From the NCBI GenBank assembly GCA_963665295.1, contig OY762209.1, forward strand, positions 3,552,001-3,616,000: a stretch of DNA of 64,000 bases, written 5' to 3'. Below the pieces are notes generated by a model. The model saw nothing but the letters and a program-made list of their open reading frames with translations. It searched no databases and had not been told where the DNA came from. This DNA is from Syntrophorhabdaceae bacterium (GTDB lineage: Bacteria; Desulfobacterota; Syntrophorhabdia; Syntrophorhabdales; Syntrophorhabdaceae). The position numbers and the translations under genes are program-made. Positions 34,636 through 52,888 of this stretch are shown here, in pieces (within the stretch, counting starts at the first letter, position 1; each line of letters opens with the position of its first letter).

Positions 34636-34845
34636 GCGGTATCCCCTCGAAATCACGCTGTAACCTTGCTCAGTACCGTTCCTTGAAGGACGAGGTGGTG
34701 ACCTTTTTTTGGTTTCTTTCGCGCCACGGTTGTTGTAGATTATGTCGGGAAGGGCGAAAGGGCCGGTCAGAAGCGGGAAGGAACCGGGAGGGCCGGAGCC
34801 ATGAAGGGGTTCCCGAAAAATCAGGAGAAACCGGGAGGAAAGAAG

Positions 34846-35634
34846 ATGAGACGTGGAAGAACGCGGCTTTGCAGCTTCTTTGTGTCCGCTGTACTGGTGG
34901 CGTCGTCGTTTATGGCGGCCGGCGCTTTAGGCGAGAGGTGTTCGGCGGAAGCGTTGCCTCCCGGATTTACGGATATAGTACGGGTAGTACCTTCGGTTCC
35001 CCTCGATATCAGATATTTCGGAGCACACAACTTTGTAGGAGAGAGAATAGACGGCTATAACGCGCCGAAATGCATCCTCACGAAGAAGGCCGCGGAGGCG
35101 CTCTCTAAGGTGCAACGCGACTTGGCGGAATTTTCACTATCTCTCAAGATCTATGATTGTTACCGGCCCCAGAGGGGGGTGGACCATTTTGTGAGATGGG
35201 CCTCCGATATAGGCGACACAAAGACGAAAAAGGAGTTCTACCCTCATGTGGACAAGAAGAACCTCTTCAAAGACGGTTATATTGCGCGCAGATCGGGCCA
35301 TAGCAGGGGGAGTACTGTGGATCTTACGATAGTGCCTCTGCCTGTTCCGGAGCAGGAGAAATATGTTCCCGGGCAGAAACTGATGGAATGTTATCTGCCT
35401 GCCCAAATGCGTTTCAAGGATAACAGCGTGGATATGGGGACGGGTTTTGACTGTTTTGATGAGCGCGCTCATCCGATGAACAACCGCGTGGGCCCGGAAC
35501 AGAGGATGGGCAGGCTCTTACTTAAACTGCTAATGGAAAAGCATGGTTTCCAGGGATACGACAAGGAATGGTGGCACTTTACTTTGAATGCGGAGCCGTT
35601 CCCCGATACTTTTTTTGATTTTCCGGTGGAATGA
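34846..35634 (+). CDS. D-alanyl-D-alanine dipeptidase (M15, VanX/DdpX-like) with signal peptide
   Basis: DCYRP, SGHSRGSTVD, DMGTGFD, EWWHF. Confidence 0.92.
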   Translation: MRRGRTRLCSFFVSAVLVASSFMAAGALGERCSAEALPPGFTDIVRVVPSVPLDIRYFGAHNFVGERIDGYNAPKCILTKKAAEALSKVQRDLAEFSLSLKIYDCYRPQRGVDHFVRWASDIGDTKTKKEFYPHVDKKNLFKDGYIARRSGHSRGSTVDLTIVPLPVPEQEKYVPGQKLMECYLPAQMRFKDNSVDMGTGFDCFDERAHPMNNRVGPEQRMGRLLLKLLMEKHGFQGYDKEWWHFTLNAEPFPDTFFDFPVE

Positions 35635-35673
35635 GAGATCAGGGAATATAATACGAACTATTGGAGGCACATT

Positions 35674-36897: not shown

Positions 36898-37005
36898 GCA
36901 AACCGGGACGGGGAGCGGGATATGGAATCCGCCCCTGGGTGAGAGAGTTTCGGGTGGCATGATGGGGGTTTTGACACGGATAAAAGTCCGTCTCCCATAA
37001 GAATA

Positions 37006-37045
37006 GGGCCTTGCCGGCACAGTTCGCGATGCGGCGGCAAGGCCC
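37006..37045. terminator. Hairpin between convergent genes
   Basis: GGGCCTTGCCG...CGGCAAGGCCC stem. Confidence 0.6.
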
Positions 37046-37063
37046 TGTAACATTAACTTACCG

Positions 37064-37537
37064 TCAATCGATTTTTATCTTGACCTGTTTCTTTTTTGCG
37101 TCCTCGGTCTTGGGCATACGGACCTCGAGGACGCCATCCTTGAACTCTGCTTTCACCTTGTCCTGCCGGATATCGGAAGGCAGACTCATGGTGCGGCAGA
37201 AAGATCCATAGGAACTTTCGTACCTGTAGAAGTTCTTCCTCTCAGTTTTGTGCTCCGCTCTTTTCTCACCCGATATGGTAATGGTATCATCCGTCAGACT
37301 GATGTCAATGTCCTCTTTCTTCATGCCCGGCAGCTCGGCCTTCAGTACCACGTCATTTTCCTCTTCGTAGATATCAATTGCGGGGCTGAACTCTACTTCT
37401 TCTATGGAGAAACGAGGCATCGCTGAAGGAAAAGGTCTGCGGAAGAAGTCTTCGAACCACTTGTCCATGTCCCAACTGACAGGGAACCTCATTGTCGGTT
37501 CGGTCTTCACCAGTTCTCTTGATTCTTTCTTAGCCAT
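37064..37537 (-). CDS. Hsp20/alpha-crystallin small heat shock protein
   Basis: PAIDIYE, AELPGMKKEDI, YGSFCR, AEFKDGVLEVRMPK. Confidence 0.94.
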   Translation of the reverse strand: MAKKESRELVKTEPTMRFPVSWDMDKWFEDFFRRPFPSAMPRFSIEEVEFSPAIDIYEEENDVVLKAELPGMKKEDIDISLTDDTITISGEKRAEHKTERKNFYRYESSYGSFCRTMSLPSDIRQDKVKAEFKDGVLEVRMPKTEDAKKKQVKIKID

Positions 37538-37772
37538 TAAGCACCTCCAAAAGAAAATAGTTGTTCAAATGTCACACTGAAACGTAATCATCCATCTCTC
37601 AGGACGTCAAGACCAGGGCAATAGGCGAATTGTCCGATGATAACGGGCTGGGGAGACTTCAATTGCCGCTTGATCCGTTTTGTGGTAATCTTCAATGAGA
37701 ATAGGCAGTGGGACAGAATGCGAGACGGTTGTGCCGGCGAATGGCACAGAATACCAAACAGAGGGAGCTGGT

Positions 37773-40700
37773 ATGGCCAAAGGGAACAGGGAGAGGGACT
37801 GGAACATAAGAGTGGGGACATCCGGGATTGCCGTCATTGTTCTGACTGTTTTCTTCACCATCGTTTGGGCCGGAGTGGGGTTCGGGAAATCACTCATCCC
37901 GCCGTCGGTGCGCGGGGCGGCTTATGACCCTCTGGACCACTGGCATGCGAGGAGTTCTCCCGCCCAAGGGTATTATTCCATGCATGGTATCGCTCAGAGC
38001 AACGGCATGTTTATCGCTGTAGGCGAACAAGGTACGATCCTCGCCTCAACGGATGGCGTAACGTGGACCAAGAGGTCGTCGGGTACCAGGAACAGGCTTA
38101 ATGACGTGACCTATGGCGGCAATACCTTCATAACAGTCGGGTGGATGGACACGATCCTTGTCTCGGCCGATGGCGTCACGTGGACCGCACAACCGTCGGG
38201 CACAGGTTACGACCTTTACGGAGTCGCTTACGGCAATCATACATTTGTGGCCACGGCGGGATATAAAGGCGTTCTCCTTACCTCCCCTGACGGCCGTATC
38301 TGGACACCTCAATCGTCGGGCAGCGCCTCGGTTCACATCGGCATCGTTTACGCGAATAGCGCCTTTTGGACTGTGGGGACCGATGGGTCCATATTTACCT
38401 CCCCTGACGGCCTTACCTGGACACCTCAATCGTCGGGGACCGAAGCACGCCTTCTCGGCATTGCCTATGGTGACGGCATGTTCGCGGTGGTCGGAGACAT
38501 GGGTACCATTCTCACCTCTCCGGACGGGGCCACATGGGCCGCGCGGGTATCAGGGACCAACCGCAGCCTGAATGGCATTGTGTACGCCGGCGGCATGTTC
38601 GCGGCGGTCGGAGACACGGGTACCATTCTCACCTCCCAAGACGGTGCCACATGGGCCGGGCGGTCATCAGGGACGGATTACAATCTTTACGATATAGGAC
38701 GCGGCAGCTCGACCTTTGTCGCGGTGGGCGCTGCCGGAGCCATCCTCCAATCGGACCCCGCGGGGTTCAGCCTGACGGTCGCAAAGTCAGGCGCCGGTTC
38801 GGGGACTGTAACGAGCTCGCCTTCAGGCTTGGACTGCGGGACTGTTTGTACTGCTGCTTTTGAGGCAGGAGCGGAGGTGACTCTCAGTGCGAACCCCGAG
38901 TCGGGAAGCTCCTTCGGCGGATGGTCGGGGGAATGTTCGGGCACCGGTGAATGTGTGATTACCATGACTGCCGATACGACGGTAATGGCGATCTTCCTGC
39001 CCCCCGGGACCGGGACGCTTACCGTAGGTGGACAAGGGGGTGGTTCCGGCACCATCAGGAGCGCGGACGGGAATATAAGCTGCGGCGCTTTTTGCTCTTA
39101 CACTTATGAGTATGGGTCACAGGTAGTTCTGACTGCCACGGCTGCTTCGGACTCGTTCTTCAACGGGTGGTCGGGCGCGTGCAGCGGGATGGGGGCCTGT
39201 ACACTCACGATGGATATGGATAAGACGGCAACCGCGTTATTCGAGACCTTGAGCCCTGATCCTCTGGATAACTGGTACGTGAGAAGTTTTGAACCAGGAG
39301 AGTACCCCCTTCACGGAATCGTGTATGGAAAGGATAGATTCGTGGCGGTGGGATTTGCGGGCACCATGTTTACTTCGGCTGACGGGAGCTTATGGACCAC
39401 ACGGTCATTGAAGACAGACCAGTATCTTTATGGCATCACCTACGGCAATAATATGTTCGTTGCGGTAGGATGGTCGGATACCATCTTCACTTCCAGGGAC
39501 GGAAATTCCTGGACAAAGAGGTCATCGAAGACAGGCTATGACCTCTATAGCATCGCATACGGCAATAAGACCTTTGTAGCGACTACGGGACATCAGGGAA
39601 CGGTCCTCACCTCTACCGACGGAGCTAAATGGACGAAAAGGTCTTTGGTGACCTACGATGTCTTTATGGCTATCACTTACGCAGACAACCTTTTTGTCGC
39701 AGTGGGGACCAACGGGGCTATTTTTACCTCCCCGGACGGCATCACGTGGACGGCAAAATCATCCGGCACCTCCAATTGGCTCCTGGGTATTACCTACGGC
39801 AACAATATGTTTGTGGCGGTAGGAGAGGCGGGAGTGATCCTTACCTCCCCTGACGGCAGTACATGGTCGGCGGGCAACTCCGGTACCGTCAACGACATAA
39901 ACGGCATCATGTACGGCAACGCCATCTTCGTCGCCGTGGGCAATTCAGGCACGGTACTCATCTCTCAGGACGGCGTAAAATGGGCCGGAAGGTCATCGGG
40001 GACGGAAAACGATCTTTTCAGCGCTGCTTATGGGAACAGCAAGTTTGTGACGGTAGGGTTTCGGGGGTCGATCATCACCTCTTCAGACGGCGCGTCGTGG
40101 ACCGTGCCGCGTTCAGTCAGCGGGATGGTGTCCCTGGCGGATACCATCGTTGCGGTAGGAGACTCCGGCATGATCCTTGTTTCAGGGGGCGGCTCACAAT
40201 GGGCGTGGTTGTCATGGGGAGCAAGCAACCACCTCTACGGTATCGCGTACGGGAACGGATCGTTCGTGGCGGTGGGGGCCTCGGGAGCTGCTCTCAACTC
40301 GACGAATGTAGTGAAATGGACAACGAGAAACTCGGGCGTCAAGACCGATTTGAGAGGCGTCACATACGGCAACAAGATGTTTGTCGCAGTGGGGGCATCC
40401 GGCGTCATCCGTACGTCCGCTCGAGGGGAGTCGTGGTCGAAACGTGCGTCGGGGACGGGCAATCACCTCTATGGCGTCACTTACGGGAATGGAACCTTTG
40501 TCGCAGTGGGGACCTCGGGGGCGGTTGTCACTTCAGTGAACGGAACGAAATGGACGGTGAGAGACTCCGGAACGGAGACCGATTTGAGAGGCGTCACATA
40601 CGGCAACAAGAGGTTCGTCGCAGTGGGGGCTTCCGGCGTCGTCCTGACATCCCCTGACGGAGTCACATGGACCGGACAGTCTTCGGGAACGGAGGCGCTT

Positions 40701-40901
40701 CTCTACGGGATCACCTATGGCCACAGCACCTTCGCGGTATCAGGAAAGGGTGGTGCCATACTGACATCTCCCGACGGCGCCACATGGACTCAGCGGACAT
40801 CTCCGACGAGTGAAGATTTGCTTTGTGTGGCGTCCGGTAACAGCACGTTTGTGGCCGGCGGACACGGAGGGGTAATCCTTCAATCGGACCCCTTGCCTTA
40901 A
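37773..40901 (+). CDS. Secreted/anchored beta-propeller repeat protein with two Cys-containing InlB-B-repeat-like domains
   Basis: N-terminal hydrophobic helix; 21 copies of about 39-aa G(I/V)xYGNxxFVAVGxxGxILTSxDGxTW; two GSGTV..CG..C..LxA..F.GWSG.CSG.G.C domains. Confidence 0.85.
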   Translation: MAKGNRERDWNIRVGTSGIAVIVLTVFFTIVWAGVGFGKSLIPPSVRGAAYDPLDHWHARSSPAQGYYSMHGIAQSNGMFIAVGEQGTILASTDGVTWTKRSSGTRNRLNDVTYGGNTFITVGWMDTILVSADGVTWTAQPSGTGYDLYGVAYGNHTFVATAGYKGVLLTSPDGRIWTPQSSGSASVHIGIVYANSAFWTVGTDGSIFTSPDGLTWTPQSSGTEARLLGIAYGDGMFAVVGDMGTILTSPDGATWAARVSGTNRSLNGIVYAGGMFAAVGDTGTILTSQDGATWAGRSSGTDYNLYDIGRGSSTFVAVGAAGAILQSDPAGFSLTVAKSGAGSGTVTSSPSGLDCGTVCTAAFEAGAEVTLSANPESGSSFGGWSGECSGTGECVITMTADTTVMAIFLPPGTGTLTVGGQGGGSGTIRSADGNISCGAFCSYTYEYGSQVVLTATAASDSFFNGWSGACSGMGACTLTMDMDKTATALFETLSPDPLDNWYVRSFEPGEYPLHGIVYGKDRFVAVGFAGTMFTSADGSLWTTRSLKTDQYLYGITYGNNMFVAVGWSDTIFTSRDGNSWTKRSSKTGYDLYSIAYGNKTFVATTGHQGTVLTSTDGAKWTKRSLVTYDVFMAITYADNLFVAVGTNGAIFTSPDGITWTAKSSGTSNWLLGITYGNNMFVAVGEAGVILTSPDGSTWSAGNSGTVNDINGIMYGNAIFVAVGNSGTVLISQDGVKWAGRSSGTENDLFSAAYGNSKFVTVGFRGSIITSSDGASWTVPRSVSGMVSLADTIVAVGDSGMILVSGGGSQWAWLSWGASNHLYGIAYGNGSFVAVGASGAALNSTNVVKWTTRNSGVKTDLRGVTYGNKMFVAVGASGVIRTSARGESWSKRASGTGNHLYGVTYGNGTFVAVGTSGAVVTSVNGTKWTVRDSGTETDLRGVTYGNKRFVAVGASGVVLTSPDGVTWTGQSSGTEALLYGITYGHSTFAVSGKGGAILTSPDGATWTQRTSPTSEDLLCVASGNSTFVAGGHGGVILQSDPLP

Positions 40902-41245: not shown

Positions 41246-41542
41246 TCAGTGGGAACTTTCGCTTTCCTGGATTTCTATCTGAAGAGCCTTGCCTTCCACT
41301 ATCGCCTCCGCGACCTTACGCCGGGCGGAACCAAGAATTCTTCCGAAGGTGGGCCGGGAGACGCCCATCTTTTTCGCTGCTTCTTCATGGTAAAGACCCT
41401 GATGGTCGGCGAGGTTGATGGCTTCGAACTCATCAGGAGAGAGGGTTACTTCGTCGAGTTCCGTAATAGGGATGCCTCTCGGCTTAAAATACACCGCATT
41501 CGGGCTGCCTACGACACACCTGCATTTTTTTGGCCGAGCCAT
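41246..41542 (-). CDS. DUF134 family HTH protein (putative regulator)
   Basis: MARPKKCRCV...FKPRG...DEFEAINLAD..GL..EEAAKKMGVSRPTF.RIL.SARRKVA. Confidence 0.9.
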   Translation of the reverse strand: MARPKKCRCVVGSPNAVYFKPRGIPITELDEVTLSPDEFEAINLADHQGLYHEEAAKKMGVSRPTFGRILGSARRKVAEAIVEGKALQIEIQESESSH

Positions 41543-41547
41543 ACGTT

Positions 41548-41576
41548 ATGGTAAACATATGTCTGATGCAAGTCAA
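41548..41576 (-). promoter_or_regulatory. Sigma-70 promoter of DUF134 gene with CATATG operator in spacer; leaderless
   Basis: TTGACT-17nt(tgcatcagaCATATGtt)-TACCAT, 5 nt before ATG. Confidence 0.65.
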
Positions 41577-41665
41577 GATCAAATGCCCGGAAAGAGCGCG
41601 TCCCCTGCCCGTGTGCCGTAGAGGCCCGAATCACCTCTGTTTCTCCTGCCCGGGGGAACTTGGAG

Positions 41666-43261
41666 TTAGTGTGCGGCCGTCGAGTGCGCTTCTCCCCGGA
41701 CAGCCTTCAGGAAAAAGGCTGCCCCGTCGGATTTGAGCTTGCGTCGCGAGACCCGGTCCATGTATAACTGGTGACCTCCGTTGTAGTACTCTAGGGTGAC
41801 CCTTGATCTGAGATCCGTATCCGGACCCATGCGATCGAAGGTATACTTTGTGGCGAAATAGGGGGTGACCAGGTCATAGTAGCCGCTTGCCACAAAGACC
41901 TTCAGAAACCTATTCTGGTTGAGAGCCATTGCAAGGCTGGTCGTTACGTTCACATAGCCTCCGGCGGCCGAGCCCCAATTCCATTCATTGAAGGTCTTCT
42001 CGGATAAAAATTCATAGGGGATGTCGCTTTCATATCGCAATTCCCGTCTCAGGTAGTCGTTAAATGCCGATAGCATGGGGGCCGTGACATCAAACATGCT
42101 CGGGTCCTCCATAAAGGTCTCCGCCCTGTAACGACCGGTATACCTCGAATCATAAAGACCCGGGCGAAGGTTGCCTTCTTCGAAGAGCAGCCTTGAAAAT
42201 GACCGCCTGTCGATGCGGAGATTAGAGTTCCTGATGAATTGGGGCTTGAGGCCCGTGTAAGCGGCGAGTTTTTCGACAATGGCTTCCTTTTCCGATGTGG
42301 AGATAGTATATCCCTTGGCAAGGGCTACGAGATAGTCGCTAAGGGCAAAACGTTCAATTTCCTTTCTTGTCCTGTCGGGATCTGCCCCGAGGCCCGGAGA
42401 GAGTCGCTTATGGTACATCGCGGTAAGGGTGTACGAAGGCAGAAAGAGCGCGTAGGCGAGGTCGTTGTCCGGGCCGGGCGCGATAGTCTGAAAGTTGAGG
42501 ATCGAGGAAATGAGGGCCAGGCCGTTGAGGGCCATGCCCACCTTATCCTGGAGATACTTTGAGAGGGCCGCCGCCCTCGTGGTGCCGTAGCTTTCACCGG
42601 CGAGAAACTTGGGGGAAAGCCAGCGTTCATTTCGGGCACAATAAAGCCTGATGAATTGAGCAATTGACTCGACATCCCTCTGAATGCCGTGAAACTCCTC
42701 TCCTTTGACGCCCTCGGCAGGTCTGCTGTAACCGGTGCCCACGGGATCGATAAAGACGAGGTCTGTGAAATCAAGCCACGTCTCTTCGTTGGTTACCCAT
42801 TCGTACGGAGCAGGCAGTCCTTTTCCGTCATCGGAAAGGAGCGCTCTTTTAGGACCGAGGGCACCGATGTGGAGCCATACCGATGCGGCTCCAGGTCCGC
42901 CGTTAAAGGCGAATGTGAGGGGCCTCCCGGTTTTCTCCGGTCCATGTTCCCTGACGTAGGAGGTAAAAAAGACATACGCGGTGGGCTTACCCGACCCGTC
43001 GGTCAAGGGCATATAGCCTGCGGTAGCGGTATATTTGAGAAGCCTGCCGTTGATCATTATGGAATGGTGTGTTACCGAGGGTTTTTGGTCCCAGGGCAGC
43101 TTCTTCTCTTCCTTCCCAACCGAACCGGCGGCCGGCTCCTGCGGTCGTTTTTGCGTCTGCCCCGCGTTCTTCGTTTCCGCGTGAATCATACAAGGCATGA
43201 CAAAGAACATGAGAACCAGCAAGGCTACAGCAATAAGGGTGCGGGAGTATGCCTGCTTCAT
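41666..43261 (-). CDS. S10 family serine carboxypeptidase, exported
   Basis: FNGGPGAAS, FIDPVGTGYS, GESYGT, GYYDL, GGH. Confidence 0.92.
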   Translation of the reverse strand: MKQAYSRTLIAVALLVLMFFVMPCMIHAETKNAGQTQKRPQEPAAGSVGKEEKKLPWDQKPSVTHHSIMINGRLLKYTATAGYMPLTDGSGKPTAYVFFTSYVREHGPEKTGRPLTFAFNGGPGAASVWLHIGALGPKRALLSDDGKGLPAPYEWVTNEETWLDFTDLVFIDPVGTGYSRPAEGVKGEEFHGIQRDVESIAQFIRLYCARNERWLSPKFLAGESYGTTRAAALSKYLQDKVGMALNGLALISSILNFQTIAPGPDNDLAYALFLPSYTLTAMYHKRLSPGLGADPDRTRKEIERFALSDYLVALAKGYTISTSEKEAIVEKLAAYTGLKPQFIRNSNLRIDRRSFSRLLFEEGNLRPGLYDSRYTGRYRAETFMEDPSMFDVTAPMLSAFNDYLRRELRYESDIPYEFLSEKTFNEWNWGSAAGGYVNVTTSLAMALNQNRFLKVFVASGYYDLVTPYFATKYTFDRMGPDTDLRSRVTLEYYNGGHQLYMDRVSRRKLKSDGAAFFLKAVRGEAHSTAAH

Positions 43262-43463
43262 ACTTTTTCTCCTTCCTTCGGGGTCGTCGAAATATTCTCA
43301 CCTTTAAGGTAATACAGAATACCGTCTTCCGGACAATTATTCCAGATGAATCCGCGCACGGGCGATCGCGGGCGGTAAGACGAGGGGGAAGAATAAATGT
43401 ACATATTCCGTGAGAGAGGGACCATTGAAAGAGATGCCGGATAATCGGGCAGGCAGCCTTGGC

Positions 43464-43490
43464 AAAAAAAAGGGGGGGGTAACCCCCCCC
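43464..43490 (-). terminator. Rho-independent terminator
   Basis: G8/C8 stem followed by T run on minus strand. Confidence 0.75.
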
Positions 43491-43499
43491 ATAAATGAA

Positions 43500-43760
43500 C
43501 TACTTCTTTTCCGGGGCAGGGGCGGGCGCTGCTGCCGGTTTCTCTTCCGGTTTCGCATCTTTCTTGTCGGCTTTCTTGTCGGCTTTCTTCTCTGCTTTCT
43601 TCTCAGCCTTCTTCTCAGCTTTCTTGTCGGCTTTCTTCTCAGGTGCTGCTGCTGCGGCTTTGTCGGCAGGTGCTGCTGCGGGCTTGTCCTGCGTGAAACC
43701 GGTTGCTACGAAAACGACGCTGATCATAACTGCGAGTACGAACATTACGACTTTCTTCAT
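43500..43760 (-). CDS. Small exported Lys/Ala-rich low-complexity protein
   Basis: Signal peptide MKKVVMFVLAV..., tandem KKA(D/E) repeats, GAGGTG RBS, own terminator. Confidence 0.8.
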   Translation of the reverse strand: MKKVVMFVLAVMISVVFVATGFTQDKPAAAPADKAAAAAPEKKADKKAEKKAEKKAEKKADKKADKKDAKPEEKPAAAPAPAPEKK

Positions 43761-43811
43761 GCTTCTTCACCTCATTATTTGAATTTTGTTGCGTATACAG
43801 TTTTTGTACTT

Positions 43812-43827
43812 TGCATTTACGGTGCCA
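43812..43827 (-). promoter_or_regulatory. Sigma-54 (-24/-12) promoter
   Basis: TGGCAC-CGTAA-ATGCA about 50 nt upstream of 43760. Confidence 0.7.
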
Positions 43828-44088
43828 AACAGAGCCATCCGTGATAAGGCGCCAATATTACAGGGAGTGTTGTTTGAAGACGGCGTGCGGTTATTCGTGA
43901 AATGACGAAACGAAAGTTCACTATTCGTCAAATAAAGAAAAATGATTTTCATTTCCCGACAGGAAAACCGGAACAGGCAAATCCGGGAAGCGGTAGATGT
44001 GGCAATATCTCACAATCCGTACTACAATTTGGAAGGAAGGACAACTACCTCGGAATGGAGAGGAAAGACGGATCGAGAAGAGGAGACA

Positions 44089-44775
44089 ATGAAAATAATA
44101 AGCATTATAGGCAGTCCGAATGGGATGAGAGGGAATACGGGAGCATTGCTGGAAATCGTTCTTGAAGGAGCGCGAAATCAGGGAGCGGAGACCCGCACTG
44201 TTGCGGTGAAGGCGGGAGAAGTGAAGCCGTGCCTGGGTTGTGATACATGTCATAAAAAAGGCGTTTGCCCGCAGAAGGATGAATTCAACGAAATCAAGGA
44301 AAGGGTTATGGAAGCCGACGGGGTGATTCTCGCGAGCCCGAACTACATATTCCATGTGAGCGCCCAGTTAAAGGCTTTCATCGACCGTTGCTGCGGGGTT
44401 GTTCATTGCCTAGGCTTTGAGGGCAAGTACGGGGCTTCGGTGGTGAGCTCGGGCGGAGGAGAGGAGAGGCCTATTGCCGAGTACATGAACTATTTCCTCG
44501 CAGTCACAGGTGTTATGCCGGTAGGCGCAGTGTGGGCCACAATGTCTCAGATAGAGGGACGGAATTTCCCGGAAGACGTGAGAGAGAAAGCATTCGCCCT
44601 CGGCAAAAGACTGGTAACGGCATGGTCCGCAAGGGAAAGAACTGCTGAATATGCAGACGTGACGTCACGCTTCAGGGAACGCATGCGGTCCCTGGTTCTC
44701 TGGCGCAAGGAGGAATGGCCCCACGAATATGGATACTGGCGGGACCGTGACCTTAAGGGCGGCATGAATCCCTGA
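44089..44775 (+). CDS. Iron-sulfur flavoprotein / flavodoxin family
   Basis: IIGSP..GNT, CLGCDTCHKKGVC, LASPNY, LKAFIDR; AGGAG RBS before ATG 44089. Confidence 0.9.
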   Translation: MKIISIIGSPNGMRGNTGALLEIVLEGARNQGAETRTVAVKAGEVKPCLGCDTCHKKGVCPQKDEFNEIKERVMEADGVILASPNYIFHVSAQLKAFIDRCCGVVHCLGFEGKYGASVVSSGGGEERPIAEYMNYFLAVTGVMPVGAVWATMSQIEGRNFPEDVREKAFALGKRLVTAWSARERTAEYADVTSRFRERMRSLVLWRKEEWPHEYGYWRDRDLKGGMNP

Positions 44776-44811
44776 GAAAGGTCTTCCTCCTTGTTTTGTA
44801 ACTGCCCCTGC

Positions 44812-45045
44812 TCAGCCTCCGCAGCAGCGCCCGGGGGTGTCGCATGAGTTGGGGTCTCCGCAGCAGCCTCCGGGAGGCGGGCTGAAGGAAGGTGTCTGGC
44901 CTCCCATGGAAATATTGGGCGCGGACATCAGCTTCGTGAGGTTGGAACTGCCGCACTCCTTGCAGGAGAACTGTTCATCCTTTCGCAACTGAAGTATCTC
45001 GTTCACTGTTCCGCATTTTTCGCAGCGGTACTCAAAAATGGGCAT
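44812..45045 (-). CDS. FmdB family zinc-ribbon protein with Cys-rich tail
   Basis: MPIFEYRCEKCG...CKECGS..LTKLMS; tail GGCCGDPNSCDTPGRCCGG. Confidence 0.88.
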   Translation of the reverse strand: MPIFEYRCEKCGTVNEILQLRKDEQFSCKECGSSNLTKLMSAPNISMGGQTPSFSPPPGGCCGDPNSCDTPGRCCGG

Positions 45046-45055
45046 TGCCTTCTCC

Positions 45056-45436
45056 TTAGTGGGCGCATCCGTGCTGGTGGTCGTGTCCGCCGCACGCATG
45101 CTGCAGGGTAAGCTCGGGAAGACCGCTCGCGGAAAGGAGGGTCATATTTTCCTTTACGCTGGGAGCTACGGCTCTGTAGACCTTGATTCCCCTGGAATTA
45201 AGGCCCTGTATTGCTCCGGCTCCGATGCCGCCCACAACCACGGCGTCCACGTCTTGCCCTCCCATGGCCATGATGGGATTGCATGCGCCATGTACGTGGT
45301 GGATGTCGGCGTTGCTTACTGTGGTTGTGTTTTGAACTTCCGTATCGACGAGAATAAATGTGGGCGCTGAGCCGAAGTGATTATAGACGATACTATCCAA
45401 GCCGTTATTCTCCTGTACTGGAAAACATACTTTCAT
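45056..45436 (-). CDS. NifB/NifX (FeMo-cofactor-binding-like) family protein
   Basis: HFGSAPTF, HHVHGACNP, VVGGIGAGA; His/Cys tail HACGGHDHQHGCAH. Confidence 0.88.
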   Translation of the reverse strand: MKVCFPVQENNGLDSIVYNHFGSAPTFILVDTEVQNTTTVSNADIHHVHGACNPIMAMGGQDVDAVVVGGIGAGAIQGLNSRGIKVYRAVAPSVKENMTLLSASGLPELTLQHACGGHDHQHGCAH

Positions 45437-45500
45437 GCGCTGCCTCCGATGAGTTGCTTTATTTGGAACGGCCCGGTTTGGCGCGGGGCGTTACATAGAG

Positions 45501-45529
45501 ATTATAATCATATGCTCATAATATGTCAA
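45501..45529 (-). promoter_or_regulatory. Perfect consensus sigma-70 promoter with CATATG operator in spacer
   Basis: TTGACA-tattatgagCATATGat-TATAAT on minus strand. Confidence 0.8.
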
Positions 45530-45547
45530 TAGGGTCCATTTTTGCTG

Positions 45548-45580
45548 TTGACATTTCTTTGTTATAATCATATGTTCAAA
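45548..45580 (+). promoter_or_regulatory. Promoter of YeeE operon overlapped by a second operator copy
   Basis: TTGACA-17nt-TATGTT; TATAATCATATGTTCAAA at 45563-45580. Confidence 0.6.
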
Positions 45581-45603
45581 ATATCAGCAAGAGGAGGGAA
45601 CCT

Positions 45604-46134
45604 ATGGAGGAAAACAGGGAAAAGGGAAAGGCTTGGAATCCTTACGTTGCGGGCGTTTTGACGGGTCTGCTTCTCATCTTCTCCGCGTGGTTCACGGGAA
45701 AATATGTGGGGGCCTCAACAACGTTTGTGCGGACGGCCGGTTTTATCGAGCAGGTTTTTGCGGAAGAGAGGGTGGGCAAAATGGAGTATTTTGTGAAAGA
45801 GATGCCCAAAATTGACTGGCAATGGATGTTTGTGGCAGGCATTTTCTTCGGCGCCCTCGTCGCCTCGGTCACCTCCCGAACTTTCCGGTGGCAGGCCGTA
45901 CCGGTTACATGGAGTGAGCGATTCGGATCGGGAAGAACAAGAAGGGCTCTTACCGCTTTTGCAGGCGGGGCGATAGCGATGTTCGGAGCGCGACTGGCGG
46001 ATGGGTGACCGAGCGGGCATGGGCTGAGCGGTTCGCTTCAGCTGGCGGTGAGTGGTTACATATCCCTGGTCTGCTTCTTTGTAGGCGGTGTTATTGTCGC
46101 CAATTTACTTTACAGGGGAGGTAAAGGACGATGA
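45604..46134 (+). CDS. YeeE/YedE family membrane protein, selenocysteine-containing (UGA 46006-46008)
   Basis: Frame continues past TGA: ARLADG-U-PSGHGLSGSLQLAVSGYISLVCFFVGGVIVANLLYRGGKGR*, matching the family GGC(T/P)SGHG motif; real stop overlaps next ATG (ATGA). Confidence 0.85.
46023..46042 (+). promoter_or_regulatory. Putative bacterial SECIS hairpin
   Basis: GCTGAGCG-GTT-CGC(T)TCAGC stem-loop starting 15 nt after the UGA, G in apical loop, bulged U. Confidence 0.65.
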
Positions 46135-46658
46135 ACGAACTCGTTTACGGGCTCATAACAGGCGTTATTTTCGGACTTCTCCTTCAGAAAGCCCGGGTGA
46201 TCCGATATGACATGCAGCTCGGAGCGCTGCTCCTCAAGGACATGACAATCGTGAAGTTCATGTTTACTACCATCCTTACGGCCATGGTCGGAGTCTACTT
46301 TCTGAAAGACCTCGGTATGGTGAAACTTGCGGTGAAGCCGACCGTTCTGGGCGCGAATATCATAGGGGGTCTTATCTTTGGAGCTGGATGGGCTCTTCTC
46401 GGATATTGTCCGGGCACGTCTCTCGGGGCGCTGGGAGAAGGGCGCTGGGACGCGGTCTGGGGCATCCTCGGGATGCTTGTAGGGGCCGCGGCATTTGCGG
46501 AAGTATATCCGATTATGAAGGGGAGTGTGCTTAAGTGGGGCGTATATGGTAAAATTACCATACCGGGAATAATCGGGATAAACCACTGGATAGTCATTGC
46601 GGCGTTTGTCGTTGTTGGTCTTGTCATGTTCCGGTGGTTCGAAAAGAAAGGGGTCTGA
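46131..46658 (+). CDS. YeeE/YedE family membrane protein (second half-type)
   Basis: GVIFGLLLQK, GGLIFGAGWALLGYCPGT, ALGEGRWDA. Confidence 0.88.
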   Translation: MNELVYGLITGVIFGLLLQKARVIRYDMQLGALLLKDMTIVKFMFTTILTAMVGVYFLKDLGMVKLAVKPTVLGANIIGGLIFGAGWALLGYCPGTSLGALGEGRWDAVWGILGMLVGAAAFAEVYPIMKGSVLKWGVYGKITIPGIIGINHWIVIAAFVVVGLVMFRWFEKKGV

Positions 46659-46706
46659 CAAGGACCGGAGTACGGCAAAAAAATTACAGGAGGTCAAGGG
46701 GTTGAT

Positions 46707-47057
46707 ATGGTAGACGAGTGGATAAAGGAGATAAAGAGAGACTTTCATCCGGATAAGGTGGGCATGATCCTTGTGCACAACGGAGTGGTACGTGGTACGT
46801 CGAAGGAAGGCGGCCTGGTAAAAGGAATGATATTGTCTGTTGACAGGAAGCTGTTGGCGTCCAAGGTAGAGGAGTTGAAGAAAAAAGAGGGTATTGCGGA
46901 GATCAGGGCATGGCTTAACGAAGGAGAGCTGCATGTAGGGGATGACATAATGTATCTTCTTGTGGCAGGGCGGTTCAGGACCGATGTCTTGCCCGTCTTG
47001 CAGGAGTTGCTCACTACGGTGAAGAAGGACGTGGTGAAGGAAAAGGAGATCATGTGA
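46707..47057 (+). CDS. MoaE-family molybdopterin synthase-like protein (short type)
   Basis: GMILVHNGVVRGT, LHVGDDIMYLLVAGRFR, VKKDVVKEKE. Confidence 0.8.
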   Translation: MVDEWIKEIKRDFHPDKVGMILVHNGVVRGTSKEGGLVKGMILSVDRKLLASKVEELKKKEGIAEIRAWLNEGELHVGDDIMYLLVAGRFRTDVLPVLQELLTTVKKDVVKEKEIM

Positions 47058-47740
47058 TGAAGAAGGGTGGCCTTACAAACTGTGCGCAGTGCGATGTGCC
47101 TCTCGGCGAGCGGATTTGCATGACCCCGGAGGGTAGATCGGGAAAGGGATGCCCCACTGGCGGCAAAAGGAAGCTCCTTGGAAAGGCGCTTGCCGAGTAC
47201 AAAGATGAGGGGGTCAGAGAATTTGCAAGGCAATCGTTCCTTCAGGAGGCGGAGTGCTATGCGGGAAGGGAGAAAAGTCCTTATGTAATGCATCCGGTAA
47301 AACCAAGAATGCTGGAGATTATGGAGTTCGCCCGCAGGATGAATTACAGGAAGCTGGGTCTCGTCTTCTGCGCGGGCCTCGCAAAAGAAGGGCGGATAGT
47401 CGGTCAACTTCTCGAGAACTATGGTTTCGAAGTCGTGTCGGTGGCGTGCAAGGCGGGCGGAGTGTCAAAGAAGGAAGTAGGCGTAAAGGATGAGGAGCAG
47501 ATATACAGGGGTAGTCATGAAACCATGTGTAATCCGGTATTTCAGGCTATGATCGTCAATGAAGCCGGGACTGACTTCAACATTCTCCTGGGCCTCTGCG
47601 TAGGTCACGACTCCCTGTACTTCAAGTATGCAACTGCACCTACCACGGTTCTCGCAGTAAAGGACCGCGTAGCCGGACATAACCCCCTGGCGTGTATCAA
47701 CATGATGGAAAACTATTCCGCATGGATAGGGAGCCCTTGA
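47054..47740 (+). CDS. DUF1847 family Cys-rich protein
   Basis: CAQC...C...CP, GLVFCAGL, VSVACK, MCNPVFQA, GLCVGHDSL, KDRVAGHNP. Confidence 0.85.
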   Translation: MMKKGGLTNCAQCDVPLGERICMTPEGRSGKGCPTGGKRKLLGKALAEYKDEGVREFARQSFLQEAECYAGREKSPYVMHPVKPRMLEIMEFARRMNYRKLGLVFCAGLAKEGRIVGQLLENYGFEVVSVACKAGGVSKKEVGVKDEEQIYRGSHETMCNPVFQAMIVNEAGTDFNILLGLCVGHDSLYFKYATAPTTVLAVKDRVAGHNPLACINMMENYSAWIGSP

Positions 47741-48186
47741 TGAACCCCGACGGATTGTCCGGGGAGGTGTTTTTGCGGGCCACAGGTTTTATTGATTCCG
47801 AAAACGACGAAATCAGGAGAGTCGCCCGCGAGATTTGCGAAGGCGCCTCAACGCCGGAACAAAGAGCAGTGAGGCTCTTCACCTTTGTCAGGGACGAGAT
47901 CCGCTATAACGCCTACATGATATCCACCCATCCCGAAGACTTCAAGGCAAGCACGACCTTGGGGAGGCAACAGGGATATTGCGTGCAGAAGGCTATACTG
48001 TTTGCCGCCCTTGGCAGGGCCTCGGGCATACCGACGCGCCTTGTCTTCGCGAAGATAAGGAACCACAGACTTTCCGGTCGTCTGATGCGGGAGATCGGGA
48101 CGAATATGCTGCCCGCCCACGGCTACAACCAACTCTACGTGGGAGAGCGGTGGGTGAGCGTCACTCCATCATTCGAAAGAGCACTA

Positions 48187-49406
48187 TTGTCACATCACAC
48201 TTGTAATGTCGTATAGTATGATATAGAATCTCCTCAAGGGTTAAATTTCACCATGGGGAGGTCCGAATGATAAAATATAGGGTGGTGCTCGAAAAAGAAG
48301 AGCGAAAGGAACTTGAAGGCGTGGTGCAAAAAGGAAATCATAAAGCCCAAAAGGTGCTCAATGCGCTGGTTCTTCTCAATTGCGATCAGGGCCGGTTCCA
48401 GGACCACCCGATGAAGAACGAGGATATATCGGCAGTGTTGCGAATCAGCATGCGTAAGATAGATAGAGTAAAAAAGCGATTCGTGGAAGAAGGACTTGAG
48501 ACTGCCCTTACCGGACACAAAGCAGAGCGAGTCTACGAGAAGAAGGCGGATGGCGATTTCGAGGCCCACCTCATTGCCTTGAGCTGTAGCGAACCACCAG
48601 AAGGTTTTGCGAGGTGGACCTTGCGTATGCTCGCGAACCGGGCCGTAGCGCTCAATTATATCGAGAATATCTCCTATGAAACCGTGCGTCGGGTTTTAAA
48701 AAAACGAAACAAAACCCTGGAAGCAGCAAGGATGGGTCATTCCACCGGAGGGCAATGCTGATTTCGTCGCCGCCATGGAGAACGTACTCGATGTATATAA
48801 ACGCCCGTATGATAAAAGATTCCCGGTGGTCTGTATGGATGAAACCCCAAGACAACTGATCAAAGAAACGCGTACCCCGATTCCCCGCGCTCCGGGACGG
48901 CTCGAGCGTCACGACTACGAATACGAGCGATGTGGCGTCTGTACCGTATTTATGGCCAACGAACCATTGGCGGGCACGCGCCTGACCAAGGTATCGGAAA
49001 GGAGAACGAAGCGCGACTGGGCGGAGTTCATCCGGGAACTTTCAGGACGGTATGGAAAGGCCAAAAGGATCACCCTTGTCATGGATAACCTGAACACCCA
49101 TAAACCCGGCTCTCTTTATGAAGCCTTTTCTCCCGAAGAGGCAAAACGCATCTGGGACCGCTTTGAATTCGTCTATACTCCCAAACATGGAAGCTGGCTC
49201 AATATGGCGGAGATTGAGCTTAACGTGCTCATTCATCAATGCCTGAGTCGCCGGATCGACACTCTCGCCGAGGTCCACTCCGCCGTGTCTGCCTGGCAGG
49301 CCCATCGCGACAATCTCAACGCAAAGGTGAACTGGCAATTTACTACTAAGGATGCGCGGGTGAAACTTAGGCGACTTTATCCGACATTAGATGAGTGACG
49401 TGACAC
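48187..49406 (+). mobile_element. IS630-family insertion sequence (1220 bp)
   Basis: TA duplication at 48185-48186 and 49407-49408; IRs TTGTCACATCAC / GTGACGTGACAC (10/12). Confidence 0.9.
48267..49398 (+). CDS. IS630 transposase, two ORFs joined by -1 frameshift
   Basis: OrfA HTH (RWTLRML); A7 run 48698-48704; -1 frame reads KKNETKPW...CMDE...VMDNLNTH...TPKHGSWLNMAE. Confidence 0.88.
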
Positions 49407-49648
49407 TATGTGAAAAGACAGGAATTCCCGTGGTTGAGTTTGACGGCAGACACGATGCGGTGTTGGCGGCTGCCGACGTCGCGGGAAATCCCTTCGTGGA
49501 GTACGTGGAAAAGTATGGTCCTGAAAGCGATCTCCCTTTCCAATGGCTCAAGGAAAAGGTTTACCCCGTGTGGGGCGACAAGGCATCGTGGTTGAATGAA
49601 AGCGACTCAAGGGGGCACGTAATGCCCTCGGGGTATCGGTTTTAATGG

Positions 49649-50017
49649 TCAGTAAATAGAGCGTATCCTGCCGCTTCTTTTGTCGATGATGAGCCGGTCG
49701 ATGGGCTTGCCTTCGGAGTCGGTTATCTCTGCCTCGAAGTATCTCCTCCGCTCTTCAACTTTTCCCACCTGTACTGTTTTCCCTGAACCGGAAAAGTATT
49801 TCTCCATGGCTTCTTTTGCTTCATCGGCCGTTTTGACGACCCTCCGCGCGCCATAAGGGCCCCACCGGTGGCCCGGGCAGTAACGCCCGTAAGGCATACC
49901 CTCGTAAGAATCGGGGCCTCCCCCGCCGCGCCCCCACCAGGGCTGGGCGTAAGACTCGGCTGAAGCCGACATCATCGCCAGAAAGGCTATAACAAGTATC
50001 ATCCCACGGGCTGCCAT
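49649..50017 (-). CDS. Exported Gly-rich protein, PepSY-like C-terminus
   Basis: Signal peptide; FEAEI..IDKRSGRIRSIY. Confidence 0.7.
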   Translation of the reverse strand: MAARGMILVIAFLAMMSASAESYAQPWWGRGGGGPDSYEGMPYGRYCPGHRWGPYGARRVVKTADEAKEAMEKYFSGSGKTVQVGKVEERRRYFEAEITDSEGKPIDRLIIDKRSGRIRSIY

Positions 50018-50080
50018 CTTGACTCCTGTAATGAACGGACCCCGGACTCACCGGGGTCCGCCTTCAAGGTTCGCTACCTT

Positions 50081-50518
50081 TTACCGCATCGGACAGTTGC
50101 CTGCCCCATAACCGCGGCCTCCCGCCATATGCGGGCCATAACCATGGCCGCGTCCGCCCATTCCCATACCGAAGCCCGCAGGTAATCCCTGTTTCTCGGC
50201 TGCGGTCCGGATCTTAAGGCGAAGATCAATGATCTCCTTCTGGAGCCCGGCTATTTTGGCCTGGTCCGGTTTGTCCTTCAAATACTCGTTCCGGATCTCG
50301 ACGCGCTTTGCCATGGCCTCGTCTCTGAGCGGAAGGGTCTCTTTCTGAAAGGCCCTGAGTGCATTCACATCCACCGGCTTGTTGACCGCAGGTCCGGCGC
50401 CGTACCCTGCTCCGCGAGGACCACCGCCATAACCCATGCCACACCATGCCTGAGCCGAGGCGCCCAAAAGGGCCAATCCAACCACTGCCACTAAAGCCAC
50501 TACCCATATCTTTTTCAT
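50081..50518 (-). CDS. Spy/CpxP/ZraP-like periplasmic protein
   Basis: Signal peptide, Gly/Met-rich ends, ETLPLRDE..KRVEI..PDQAKI..LQKEI helical core. Confidence 0.75.
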   Translation of the reverse strand: MKKIWVVALVAVVGLALLGASAQAWCGMGYGGGPRGAGYGAGPAVNKPVDVNALRAFQKETLPLRDEAMAKRVEIRNEYLKDKPDQAKIAGLQKEIIDLRLKIRTAAEKQGLPAGFGMGMGGRGHGYGPHMAGGRGYGAGNCPMR

Positions 50519-50592
50519 TCCTTTGTCCCTCCTTTATTGGGATTATTTATAGTATGAGTATAAAGGAGGAATGTGAAGGGGTGACGAAGAGA

Positions 50593-51960
50593 TTATGAAG
50601 AATTGTGAATGGAAGCCCCGGGCAGGCGCACGGTAAAAACCGAACCCTGACCGTACACGCTTGTCGCTTCCACTCTCCCTCCGTGTGCCTCTGCCAGTTC
50701 TTTTACAATGGTGAGGCCGATGCCGAGGCCTCCCCCCGGTCCACGATAAAACCTCTCAAAGATGAAGGGTAGGTCCTTTTCCTTAATACCTGTCCCGTTG
50801 TCCTCAACGGAAAGAACTGCGTCTCCGTCTGCCATCGCTGCGGTAAGGAGCACGTGACCGCCGCGGGGGGTCACTTTCAGCGCATTGCTGAGCAGGTTGA
50901 GAATTATCTGACTCAGGCGGTCCGGGTCCGCGTATACTTCGGTCGCATCGCTCAATCTCAGTTCAAGGGCAACGCCTTTTTCGTCGAAGGACCCCCGGTA
51001 CCTTTCCACTATGTGGGTGAGGAAAGTTCTTATGTCGAGGATGCGGCACGCCAGAGAAAGAACGCTAGCCTCGGCCTGATTGAGTTCCTCGATCCCATCG
51101 ACCATGGCTTTGAGCCTGCCTGTCTCATCGTAGAGGGACTGGAGCCTTTCGGGATCGTTTGCGATCAGGCCGTCGATCATACCCTCGATTTCGCCCCGCA
51201 TGACCCCCAGTGGGGTCCTCAGTTCGTGAGCAACGTCGGCGATCAGCTTTCGTCGCAACTGTTCGTGGGTTTCGAGGGCTTTCGCCATCCGGTTGAACGT
51301 TTCGGAAAGGTCCCCCACTTCATCACGTCTGGTGACTGCCACGCGCTTTGTAAAGTCTCCCCGGCTGATAGCGGCGGCAGCGGCGGCAAGTTCCTGGATG
51401 GGGCGGGTCAACCGGCGGGAGAAGAGCACGGAGATAAGGACGGCGAGGCTGCCTATGATGAGCACCGAGGCGAGAAGGAACAGATCGGATCTGCGGATAA
51501 ACAGGGTCTCCTTTGCAGGCTTCAACTCCTTGAGTTCGAGGGTCCCGATCTGGGCGCCCCCCAGAAAAAGAGGGTAAGGCACAAAATCGCCGGAAGCTCC
51601 CGCTGCCCGGTATTCGGAGAGAGACATGAGCCTTCTCTTCACGAGGGGTGTTGCCGCTTCGATTGCCCTCTTCGTATCTATGACCGGGCTGCCCTCCCGG
51701 TCCAGAAGTATCATTTCAAACCCAAGGTTCAAGGCCCATAACGCATCTTCAGCCTGGGCCTCCTTGTTCCAACCGGAGTTGCGCTCGTACGACCCTTCGA
51801 GGTGAGCCAGTATCCAGTAAGCCTTATCTTCGGTTTCACCCTCGAGGTAGGCGCTAAAGTCTTTGAGCATCAGTTCCCGGAGCATCAGCGCCCCTGAGAG
51901 GGAGAGCACCACCACTCCCAGAAGCAGGAGAAGGAACTTGAGCCGCAGACGGCTAGACAT
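50593..51960 (-). CDS. Membrane sensor histidine kinase (BaeS-like, HAMP)
   Basis: Two TM, HAMP, VAHELRTPL, NLLSNA, DNGTGI, GLGIGL. Confidence 0.93.
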   Translation of the reverse strand: MSSRLRLKFLLLLLGVVVLSLSGALMLRELMLKDFSAYLEGETEDKAYWILAHLEGSYERNSGWNKEAQAEDALWALNLGFEMILLDREGSPVIDTKRAIEAATPLVKRRLMSLSEYRAAGASGDFVPYPLFLGGAQIGTLELKELKPAKETLFIRRSDLFLLASVLIIGSLAVLISVLFSRRLTRPIQELAAAAAAISRGDFTKRVAVTRRDEVGDLSETFNRMAKALETHEQLRRKLIADVAHELRTPLGVMRGEIEGMIDGLIANDPERLQSLYDETGRLKAMVDGIEELNQAEASVLSLACRILDIRTFLTHIVERYRGSFDEKGVALELRLSDATEVYADPDRLSQIILNLLSNALKVTPRGGHVLLTAAMADGDAVLSVEDNGTGIKEKDLPFIFERFYRGPGGGLGIGLTIVKELAEAHGGRVEATSVYGQGSVFTVRLPGASIHNSS

Positions 51961-52654
51961 CCCTGCTCACGGAGAAGCGGTAGCCTACACCGTAAATCGT
52001 ATGGATGAAGGAAGGGTTCTGGGGATCATCCTCTATCTTGCGGCGGATGTTCTTGATGTGGGCGTCCACGCTCCTCTCATAGCCCTCAAATTGGTACCCT
52101 AGGGCCTTCTCAACCAGTTCACTCCTTGTGAAAACCCGGTGGGGAGCGTTGGCAAGGCTGAAGAGAAGCTTGAACTCGGTAGGTGTCAACCGTACCGGCT
52201 CGTTTCCTTTTATCACCTTATAGTCCTGACCATCGATAATGAGGGATCCGTGGTTGAAACTCATGGGTTCATTTCCTGCGAGGTCTCCTTTCTCGAAGCG
52301 CTTGAGGACGGCCTTTACTCTGAAGACCAACTCCCGGGGGCTGAAAGGCTTCACCACGTAGTCGTCCGCGCCGAGGGCGAACCCCGCGACTCTTTCCTCC
52401 TCGGATGCCTTGGCGGTGACCATTATTATGGGCACGTCGGCGATCTCCTTGAGCTGAAGGCAGAGTTCCTCGCCGGTGGTATCGGGGAGCATGAGGTCGA
52501 GAATTACGAGCATAGGCTTTTCTTTGTTGGCTGCTTCCAGGGCTTCCTTGCCGCGTTCCGCGTGAACTACCCGAAAACCGGCGCCTTCCAGATAGACCTT
52601 TACGATACGGGCTATTTTCAGATCGTCTTCAACGACAAGTATGGGATAGAGCAT
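51953..52654 (-). CDS. OmpR-family response regulator
   Basis: VVEDD, LDLMLP, GADDYVVKPFS, LTPTEF, DAHIKNIRRK, TIYGVGY; start at ATG 52654. Confidence 0.93.
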   Translation of the reverse strand: MLYPILVVEDDLKIARIVKVYLEGAGFRVVHAERGKEALEAANKEKPMLVILDLMLPDTTGEELCLQLKEIADVPIIMVTAKASEEERVAGFALGADDYVVKPFSPRELVFRVKAVLKRFEKGDLAGNEPMSFNHGSLIIDGQDYKVIKGNEPVRLTPTEFKLLFSLANAPHRVFTRSELVEKALGYQFEGYERSVDAHIKNIRRKIEDDPQNPSFIHTIYGVGYRFSVSRDV

Positions 52655-52888
52655 ACTAAACTCTACACTACAAACAGGGCGAGCGCAATATTCCCGGAGG
52701 TCTTTTGACCTTTCCCGGATGCCCAATCACGGGTTTTACCTGGGTTGTCCATGGACGACGGGACTTTGCCCCACCTGACGGGGACATCTTGGACCTCGTT
52801 ATATCGACCCTCCAGGCAGTCCGAAACAGAGCCGTTGCGCCGGGTCTCATCCCGCAGCAGATGCGGCCATGGAACGGGGCCGTGCATT

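Follow-up and report, generated by a model that had tools for sequence, protein, structure and literature searches.

A conserved palindromic operator, probably read by DUF134 proteins, at divergent nifX-fmdB and selenoprotein yeeE promoters of a Syntrophorhabdaceae bacterium

We analysed a 64,000-nucleotide stretch of DNA from a Syntrophorhabdaceae bacterium (contig OY762209.1, positions 3,552,001 to 3,616,000; hereafter the window, and its genome G000). It contains a gene for a small DUF134 protein and two divergent transcription units, one encoding a NifX-like and an FmdB-type protein and the other beginning with yeeE, a gene for a half-size YeeE/YedE transporter with a predicted selenocysteine (Sec). 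Two palindromic sites between these units are high-scoring copies of a conserved operator, and we propose, with a probability of roughly 0.7, that both are bound by a DUF134 dimer with arginine (Arg) in its recognition helix, which would block sigma-70 RNA polymerase at the nifX-fmdB and yeeE promoters. Direct binding, dimer formation and repression are all three inferred from the DNA and protein sequences, the dimer because the operator is palindromic.

The site on the nifX side (O1), TATAATCATATGCTCATA at 45503-45520, and the site on the yeeE side (O2), TATAATCATATGTTCAAA at 45563-45580, are identical at 16 of 18 positions and lie 60 bp apart, and a related site (O3), TAAACATATGTCTGA at 41552-41566, precedes the DUF134 gene. 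All of this had been pointed out in a preliminary description of the DNA, together with a perfect TTGACA/TATAAT promoter of the nifX-like gene and the placement of CATATG at spacer positions 10-15 in both minus-strand promoters (nifX-like and DUF134), and we found it as described; the nifX-like promoter matches at 12/12 positions with a 17-bp spacer (45529-45501, minus strand). CATATG alone was dropped as evidence, since its 14 occurrences in the window are no enrichment over the 9.8 expected. Extended to T[AG]A.CATATG.T[CT]A, the pattern is confined in the 5.5-Mb genome to the two sites of the divergent promoter region. When the genome was scored with a matrix from other genomes, O1 and O2 ranked first and third (28.4 and 22.8), and column-permuted control matrices gave a mean of 0.1 hits above 20. 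Only four sites scored above 16; the other two were that of a second DUF134-nifX-fmdB operon (24.9) and one at G000 1693592 (21.3), which falls in what looks like coding sequence and was discounted as a probable chance match. No listed variant of the operators was seen in the DNA contigs of sequencing runs X3-X6, which may be from the source strain.

The operator seems to be a feature of the DUF134 family. Its full consensus is a 20-bp palindrome, TTATGAGCATATGCTCATAA. Among the best 80 of at least 169 DUF134 loci in GTDB, 47 carried CATATG within 90 bp of the start, and the matrix score exceeded 14 in 58 of the 80 DUF134 upstream regions versus 3 of 441 control windows of the same loci. The TTATGAGCATATGCTCATAA matrix was trained on the same 80 regions that it scored, and therefore two further tests started from the DNA side. 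In the order Syntrophorhabdales (96 genomes, 86 of them with DUF134 genes), a degenerate pattern matched in 68 genomes, mostly once in each, and its reversed control gave 11 matches in 10 genomes; DUF134 stood directly downstream at 25 of the 30 pattern loci fetched. A pattern-only scan of metagenomes found at least 120 stretches, of which 80 were listed. The gene immediately following was DUF134 in 56 of these 80 matches, NifX-like in 3, CoA-disulfide-reductase-like in 2 and DUF1847 in 1; the other 18 fitted no query, some of them preceding DUF5320, OsmC, a methyltransferase or an ARMT1-like gene. The conservation before DUF134 genes spans bacteria and archaea, which bears out the earlier expectation that orthologues would share the motif.

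The placement of the operator within the promoter is constant: the end of CATATG was 2 nt before the -10 box in 51/51 promoter-like matches, the same as at O1. The start codon was 5-7 nt past the -10 box in 40 of 132 DUF134 upstream regions, suggesting that the mRNAs of these 40 genes may be leaderless; the mRNA of the window gene is likely leaderless too, because its start codon comes 5 nt after the -10 box. At three loci without DUF134 (L241, L249, L301), a perfect operator-like palindrome was found within GGTCAAT/ATTGACC-like inverted arms and may be an unrelated inverted repeat.

We compared the recognition helices of 132 distinct DUF134 genes with the sites found up to 110 bp upstream. 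Genes with Arg at position 63, where the recognition helix starts (105/132), had 84 CATATG-type sites, 2 mixed ones and none of the TATATA type, with 19 genes showing no site. Genes with glutamine (Gln) at this position (27/132) had 25 sites of the TTATGAATATATATTCATAA (TATATA) type and none of the CATATG type, with 2 showing no site. This genome has both helix classes, and the motifs differ accordingly: a second short Arg-helix gene has a CATATG-type site, and three long Gln-helix DUF134-NifX fusion genes each have a TATATA-type site. The helix of the window protein is the canonical SRPTFGR. Because the operator centre tracks residue 63, DUF134 is supported as the binder, and O1 is very likely occupied by an Arg-helix DUF134. 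Other helices were seen as well (L081, L082, L084, L072-L074 and L058/L062/L064/L085). Those of the form RHT[LF]GR pair with TTGCTCAATTGAGCAA-like upstream palindromes, RQTFGN pairs with TTATTGGCATATGCCAATAA in Vibrio and Shewanella, and RPTVTR has no standard upstream site.

An AlphaFold model of DUF134 (82 sequences; predicted local distance difference test score 86) has a three-helix helix-turn-helix (HTH) fold with helices at 36-47, 52-59 and 63-83. A sequence search of the PDB found no relative of DUF134. The best fold matches were sigma region 4, DeoR and NarL-type HTH domains (best Foldseek E 0.033, best Z 7.7). The three helices align with the HTH of sigma region 4, DeoR(SorC) and NarL-type proteins (PDB 2h27, 7bhy, 1je8) at about 1-2 Å root-mean-square deviation over 40-50 residues, whereas an N-terminal arm and two short strands are extra in DUF134; these scores indicate a common fold and not family membership. 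Together, the predicted fold and the match between helix and operator make DUF134 the likely binder of the sites, as had been supposed.

Several observations weigh against our proposal. The fold matches are short and modest in score, and 19 of the 105 Arg-helix genes lack a site within 110 bp. On a tree of the 109 classified genes (23 without a clear site left out, the two helix residues masked), helix and operator each changed four times, and well-supported branches held one independent pair, which was concordant and not significant; resolution is weak in the tree of all 132 proteins (93 columns), and the independent-pairs test cannot reach significance. The homologues L030 and L070 have good operator sites and no cysteine (Cys) at all. 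On the yeeE side, a strong site on its own promoter was found in 0 of 58 other yeeE copies of the order (29 + 29; about six with short upstream sequence). O2 also has the same orientation as O1 and similar flanks, and may for this reason be a duplicated nifX promoter/operator.

The last two points leave room for a different view of O2, namely that it is an auxiliary or duplicated operator of the nifX-fmdB promoter, acting by tandem binding or looping, and that DUF134 exerts no meaningful control over the yeeE operon. O1 and O2 repeat each other in the same orientation and share a genus-specific variant, ATCATATG, which also occurs at the nifX operator of the same-genus genome G055, and paired sites are known from other DUF134 loci of this analysis. 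The 80 GTDB loci (the best 80 of at least 169) yielded no yeeE homologue, and among the 80 listed metagenome matches none lay directly before yeeE; a yeeE at metagenome locus L264 was not counted, as an oppositely oriented gene lies between it and the site. However, before yeeE there is just one promoter-like site on the plus strand, with its -35/-10 placed as in the yeeE promoters of relatives, and O2 lies over it; whatever the origin of O2, a protein occupying it should get in the way of the yeeE promoter. A purely auxiliary O2 seems rather unlikely, and repression of yeeE through O2 is probable, if less so than binding at O1. In the same-genus genome G056, the same nifX/yeeE divergon has a strong nifX-side site and an eroded O2 homologue (14/20 identical). 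The yeeE gene had been counted among the regulated genes; with 0/58 copies sharing a strong site, it could not be upheld as a conserved regulon member, and control of a Sec-yeeE operon by the DUF134 operator is probably confined to this genome.

The Sec assignment itself, also made in the preliminary description, was strengthened. Reading the TGA at 46006-46008 as Sec gives a 176-amino-acid GUPSG protein whose reading frame runs to the start of the second yeeE, and the aligned codon is TGA in 28/30 loci and TGC (Cys) in 2/30, the latter being the first YeeE of L100 (G066) and L117 (G052). The genome encodes tRNA-Sec and selA above cut-off. After the TGA, where a SECIS element would be expected, a hairpin of -19.3 kcal/mol is predicted at 55-60 nt and other folds at shorter lengths, as computed without a shuffle or covariation control. 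The TGA very probably encodes Sec.

As the signal, we tentatively place sulfide/persulfide or iron-sulfur (Fe-S) status first, judging from the targets, which include Mrp/ApbC, Fe-S ATPases, NifU, CoA-disulfide reductase-rhodanese, OsmC and IPR003731 proteins. IssA/SipA, which share the IPR003731 domain, are sulfur-induced and bind iron and sulfur, and half-size yeeE pairs are found under the persulfide sensor BigR (see the passages cited below); both point in the same direction. A metal ion (Zn, Cu, Ni, Co, Mo/W), our less likely second choice, would leave operator and repressor the same and make the His/Cys-tailed NifX-like protein and FmdB metal buffers or chaperones. It is consistent with the HxHGAC motif and His/Cys tail conserved in the NifX-like partners, with a C-terminal zinc-ribbon-like motif in 33 of 132 DUF134 proteins, and with an orange protein carrying a Mo-Cu cluster that appears in titles of the reference list of PMC6345978. 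Genes for CDF, chromate and ABC transporters, moaE-like genes, modA, yqeB and xdhC also lie near DUF134 loci, but most metal transporters are neighbours without a site of their own, and the operator-led genes that can be named mostly serve sulfur or Fe-S handling (CoA-disulfide reductase-rhodanese, Mrp, NifU, OsmC).

In the full version of the preliminary description, the window DUF134 autoregulates through O3 and governs the eight genes together, which would form a single conserved thiol/selenol-metal system with the CRC motif of the protein as its sensor. O3 does retain the ACATATGT core in the canonical promoter position, and the window protein has a canonical helix. Yet O3 departs from the consensus at 8 or more of 20 positions, and autoregulation is doubtful because this site is eroded (-2.8, against 28.4 and 22.8 for O1 and O2). 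In G055 and G056, DUF134 is likewise split from nifX; the own-site scores of these copies were 14.1 and -3.6, and their nifX sites were strong. An Arg held by 118/132 homologues is lost in all three split copies (N43 in the window protein). That the window copy still regulates itself is unlikely. It is parted from its nifX-fmdB partners by 3.3 kb, and a second, intact DUF134-nifX-fmdB operon with a strong site (24.9) is present at G000 3274019; the two DUF134 paralogues are 68% and their NifX-like partners 72% identical.

The CRC motif, pointed out earlier in the window DUF134, was found in only 38/132 homologues. Among the 132, Cys occurs at position 7 in 75, at position 9 in 50 and at position 12 in 45, and 128 have an N-terminal Cys or at least two tail Cys, with no single Cys conserved. 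This lack of a family-wide Cys, together with the two Cys-free homologues that have good sites, weakens the idea of universal thiol sensing.

The choice of targets could be kept in part. The nifX-like and fmdB genes are core targets, as anticipated. The moaE-like and DUF1847 genes, which had been counted as regulated, do recur, in many cases back to back, next to DUF134 operons of the order, but they are usually without their own operator: in 16 selected loci and 30 DUF1847 loci, the only strong nearby site was usually on a DUF134 or nifX promoter. In some operons DUF1847 comes after nifX, and at one metagenome locus it stands directly behind an operator. Transglutaminase-like genes likewise recur next to DUF134 operons, but the one here, proposed as a target, is broken by IS630. 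Other operator-led genes encode CoA-disulfide reductase-rhodanese, OsmC, an MBL-fold hydrolase, DUF1847 and DUF5320; Mrp/ApbC, Fe-S ATPases and NifU are encoded in DUF134 operons. Because the yeeE link and CRC are not conserved, the own site of the window copy is eroded and the transglutaminase-like gene is broken, what is left of the single handling system is a conserved DUF134-nifX-like-fmdB core, as read from the loci compared, with Sec-YeeE as a local addition; an eight-gene unit run by the window copy is improbable.

Archaea have no sigma factors. A reading of the palindrome by another, unlinked transcription factor, or DUF134 acting as an activator or sigma-like factor, is highly improbable: the closest folds to DUF134 are those of sigma region 4 and its binding is a prediction, but DUF134 genes of many phyla, and those of archaea, have the site immediately in front of them, a different DUF134 helix goes with a different operator centre even among the paralogues of a single genome, and the site overlaps near-consensus -35/-10 promoters, where repressors usually bind.

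Our preferred reading, a DUF134 repressor at O1 and O2, would work as follows. At the nifX-fmdB promoter a dimer would cover the spacer and the -10 box, and at the yeeE promoter the -10 and the start, barring sigma-70 RNA polymerase from the back-to-back promoters until a signal frees the protein. Sensing might proceed through the variable N-terminal or C-terminal Cys clusters, and induction would yield small Fe-S/metal-sulfur-binding proteins and a transporter for sulfur or selenium compounds. The ancestral unit in Syntrophorhabdales would be an autoregulated, likely leaderless DUF134-nifX-fmdB operon. In this genus one copy seems to have come apart, with nifX-fmdB keeping the strong promoter and operator and the split DUF134 left with a weaker promoter, a decayed operator and likely a low steady level. 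The split protein would likely share its task with the 68%-identical paralogue that heads the intact operon, and the Sec-yeeE/yeeE/moaE/DUF1847 operon was probably brought under the same control through O2.

BigR is an ArsR-family protein, and DUF134 belongs to another family. In passages of PMC7315123, the Acinetobacter baumannii yeeE-yedE-pdo2 operon is under BigR, a persulfide sensor with a conserved dithiol. The window resembles it in having a half-size YeeE/YedE transporter pair under a small repressor in a sulfur-handling operon, but DUF134 has no conserved Cys, the window operon has no persulfide dioxygenase and its first YeeE carries Sec; the DUF134 system is not a BigR/CstR regulon. 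The YeeE/YedE selenoprotein family with GUxSG is already listed in the parts of PMC13188914 and PMC9312934 considered here. The window yeeE shares PF04143 and GUPSG with it, and the genome the Sec machinery, with no substantial difference; the placement of Sec-YeeE under a DUF134 operator is the new part.

Desulfovibrio vulgaris Hildenborough has a small two-operon regulon (orp) of IPR003731 proteins, Fe-S ATPases and MrpORP, controlled by OrpR, a sigma-54 enhancer-binding activator with a [4Fe-4S] PAS domain (passages of PMC8359166 and PMC6345978). The window NifX-like protein matches the orange protein (ORP) structure 2wfb (E 1.1e-4), and a long DUF134 paralogue (L087) heads genes for two Fe-S ATPases and an above-cut-off MrpORP. 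The window regulator, however, is a 98-amino-acid PF02001 HTH protein, the promoters are of the TTGACA/TATAAT type and overlapped by the site, and the locus has no Fe-S ATPase or Mrp gene. The target set works in a similar way to the orp operons, but since these are run by a sigma-54 activator, the DUF134 locus does not belong with them, though no scan for sigma-54 motifs was made. IssA/SipA of Pyrococcus furiosus and Thermococcus onnurineus have the IPR003731 domain, are induced by sulfur and bind Fe and S, and no DUF134-type regulator appears in the passages of PMC5524996 and PMC4463584 that describe them. IssA has a 70-residue cationic Gly/aromatic tail (part of PMC5524996), in contrast to the short His/Cys tail of the window protein, which is outside the IssA clade.

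The features are collected in Table 1. The gene identities were borne out by Pfam (DUF134, FmdB-type zinc ribbon, PF02579, two half-size PF04143, MoaE, DUF1847 and a transglutaminase-like core), and an atlas look-up of DUF1847 returned DUF1847 clusters only.

Table 1. Features of the window, in window coordinates, and long DUF134-NifX fusion loci of the genome
Feature	Position	Strand	Remarks
DUF134 (PF02001) protein, 98 amino acids	41246-41542	-	Pfam 86.4 bits, gathering cut-off 27
DUF134 promoter, weak sigma-70 type, TTGACT-17-TACCAT	41548-41576	-	start codon 5 nt past -10
Predicted eroded operator O3	41549-41568		score -2.8; core ACATATGT kept, flanks lost
fmdB, FmdB-type zinc-ribbon protein with Cys-rich tail, 76 amino acids	44812-45042	-	Pfam
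NifX-like IPR003731/PF02579 protein, 126 amino acids	45056-45436	-	internal HxHGAC, His/Cys tail
nifX-like/fmdB promoter, perfect TTGACA-17-TATAAT (12/12)	45501-45529	-	
Predicted operator O1	45502-45521		score 28.4, genome's best; fills spacer and -10 of nifX promoter, the family's canonical position
yeeE operon promoter, TTGACA-17-TATGTT	45548-45576	+	alternative -10 TGnTATAAT at 45560-45568
Predicted operator O2	45562-45581		score 22.8; overlaps yeeE -10 and likely start site
yeeE, half-size YeeE/YedE transporter, 176 amino acids	45604-46134	+	TGA 46006-46008 read as Sec (GUPSG)
Second half-size YeeE/YedE transporter, 175 amino acids	46131-46658	+	GYCPG
MoaE-like protein, 116 amino acids	46707-47057	+	
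DUF1847 Cys-rich protein, 227 amino acids	47057-47740	+	
Transglutaminase-like gene	47740-49645	+	IS630 inside (about 48184-49408), pieces at both flanks
Long DUF134-NifX fusion loci L087; L088; L089	G000 3239946-3247670; 31000-38650; 3689770-3691740		

Between fmdB and DUF134 lie genes for an S10 peptidase, a small secreted protein and an FMN reductase. The secreted protein (43500-43760, minus strand) is rich in Ala and Lys with KKADKKAE repeats and is followed by a strong terminator (43472-43490); a homologue also precedes the S10 peptidase in G056. The IS630 element is 1.2 kb long (48184-49408) with split open reading frames at 48267-48761 and 48775-49398, and the genome has 9 further copies at 99.5% identity or more and 2 at about 82%. 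Beyond it (49649-52726, minus strand) are a two-component system and two small periplasmic proteins, one weakly like the heavy-metal resistance family PF13801, and this block adjoins the yeeE operon in G056 as well. A 1068-amino-acid secreted protein of GxILTSxDGxTW repeats with two inserted Cys-containing domains is encoded at 37695-40901 (plus strand).

Elsewhere in the genome, the genes headed by the L087 fusion include, besides those named above, yqeB, xdhC and one for an MBL-fold protein. L088, a comparable copy that has decayed in part, has nifU, and a further TATATA-type site is present at 3692120. Beside the second DUF134-nifX-fmdB operon, locus L086 (6514-6789 and 854-6414) has a gene for an NHLP-leader precursor of a ribosomally synthesized and post-translationally modified peptide, modA, moaA/moaC-like genes and CoA-disulfide reductase-rhodanese.

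A literature search on DUF134/UPF0251/COG1342/PF02001, the motif and the regulation of the NifX family found no description of this regulator or operator; subscription journals, RegPrecise-type databases and supplements were outside the search, and an earlier motif prediction is possible. No function of DUF134 was found in the literature searched, though the family occurs in many anaerobic bacteria and archaea; the mention of DUF134 in the part of PMC5886521 considered is in a mutation table.

More speculatively, DUF134 proteins may be cross-domain sulfur/Fe-S-sensing repressors of anaerobes, a picture that we regard as possible and less secure than the choice of signal itself. Arg63 would read GAGCATATGCTC and Gln63 GAATATATATTC, so that paralogues could run separate regulons in one cell and express IPR003731 metal-sulfur carrier genes from leaderless promoters, with a Sec-YeeE operon recruited here while the local regulator gives up autoregulation.

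Repression of this kind is classical, and the involvement of selenium looks like a local trait of this genome. What the window adds is a two-class helix/operator code within one genome, a split regulator copy with an eroded site, and the probable local capture of a Sec-YeeE operon. The exact operator, the predicted specificity residue and the target list make the DUF134 family testable by one gel shift. They also give a handle on the role and induction of stand-alone NifX-like proteins (of the orange protein/IssA type) outside Desulfovibrio, and the yeeE link, if true, would provide a condition for expressing a predicted selenoprotein transporter.

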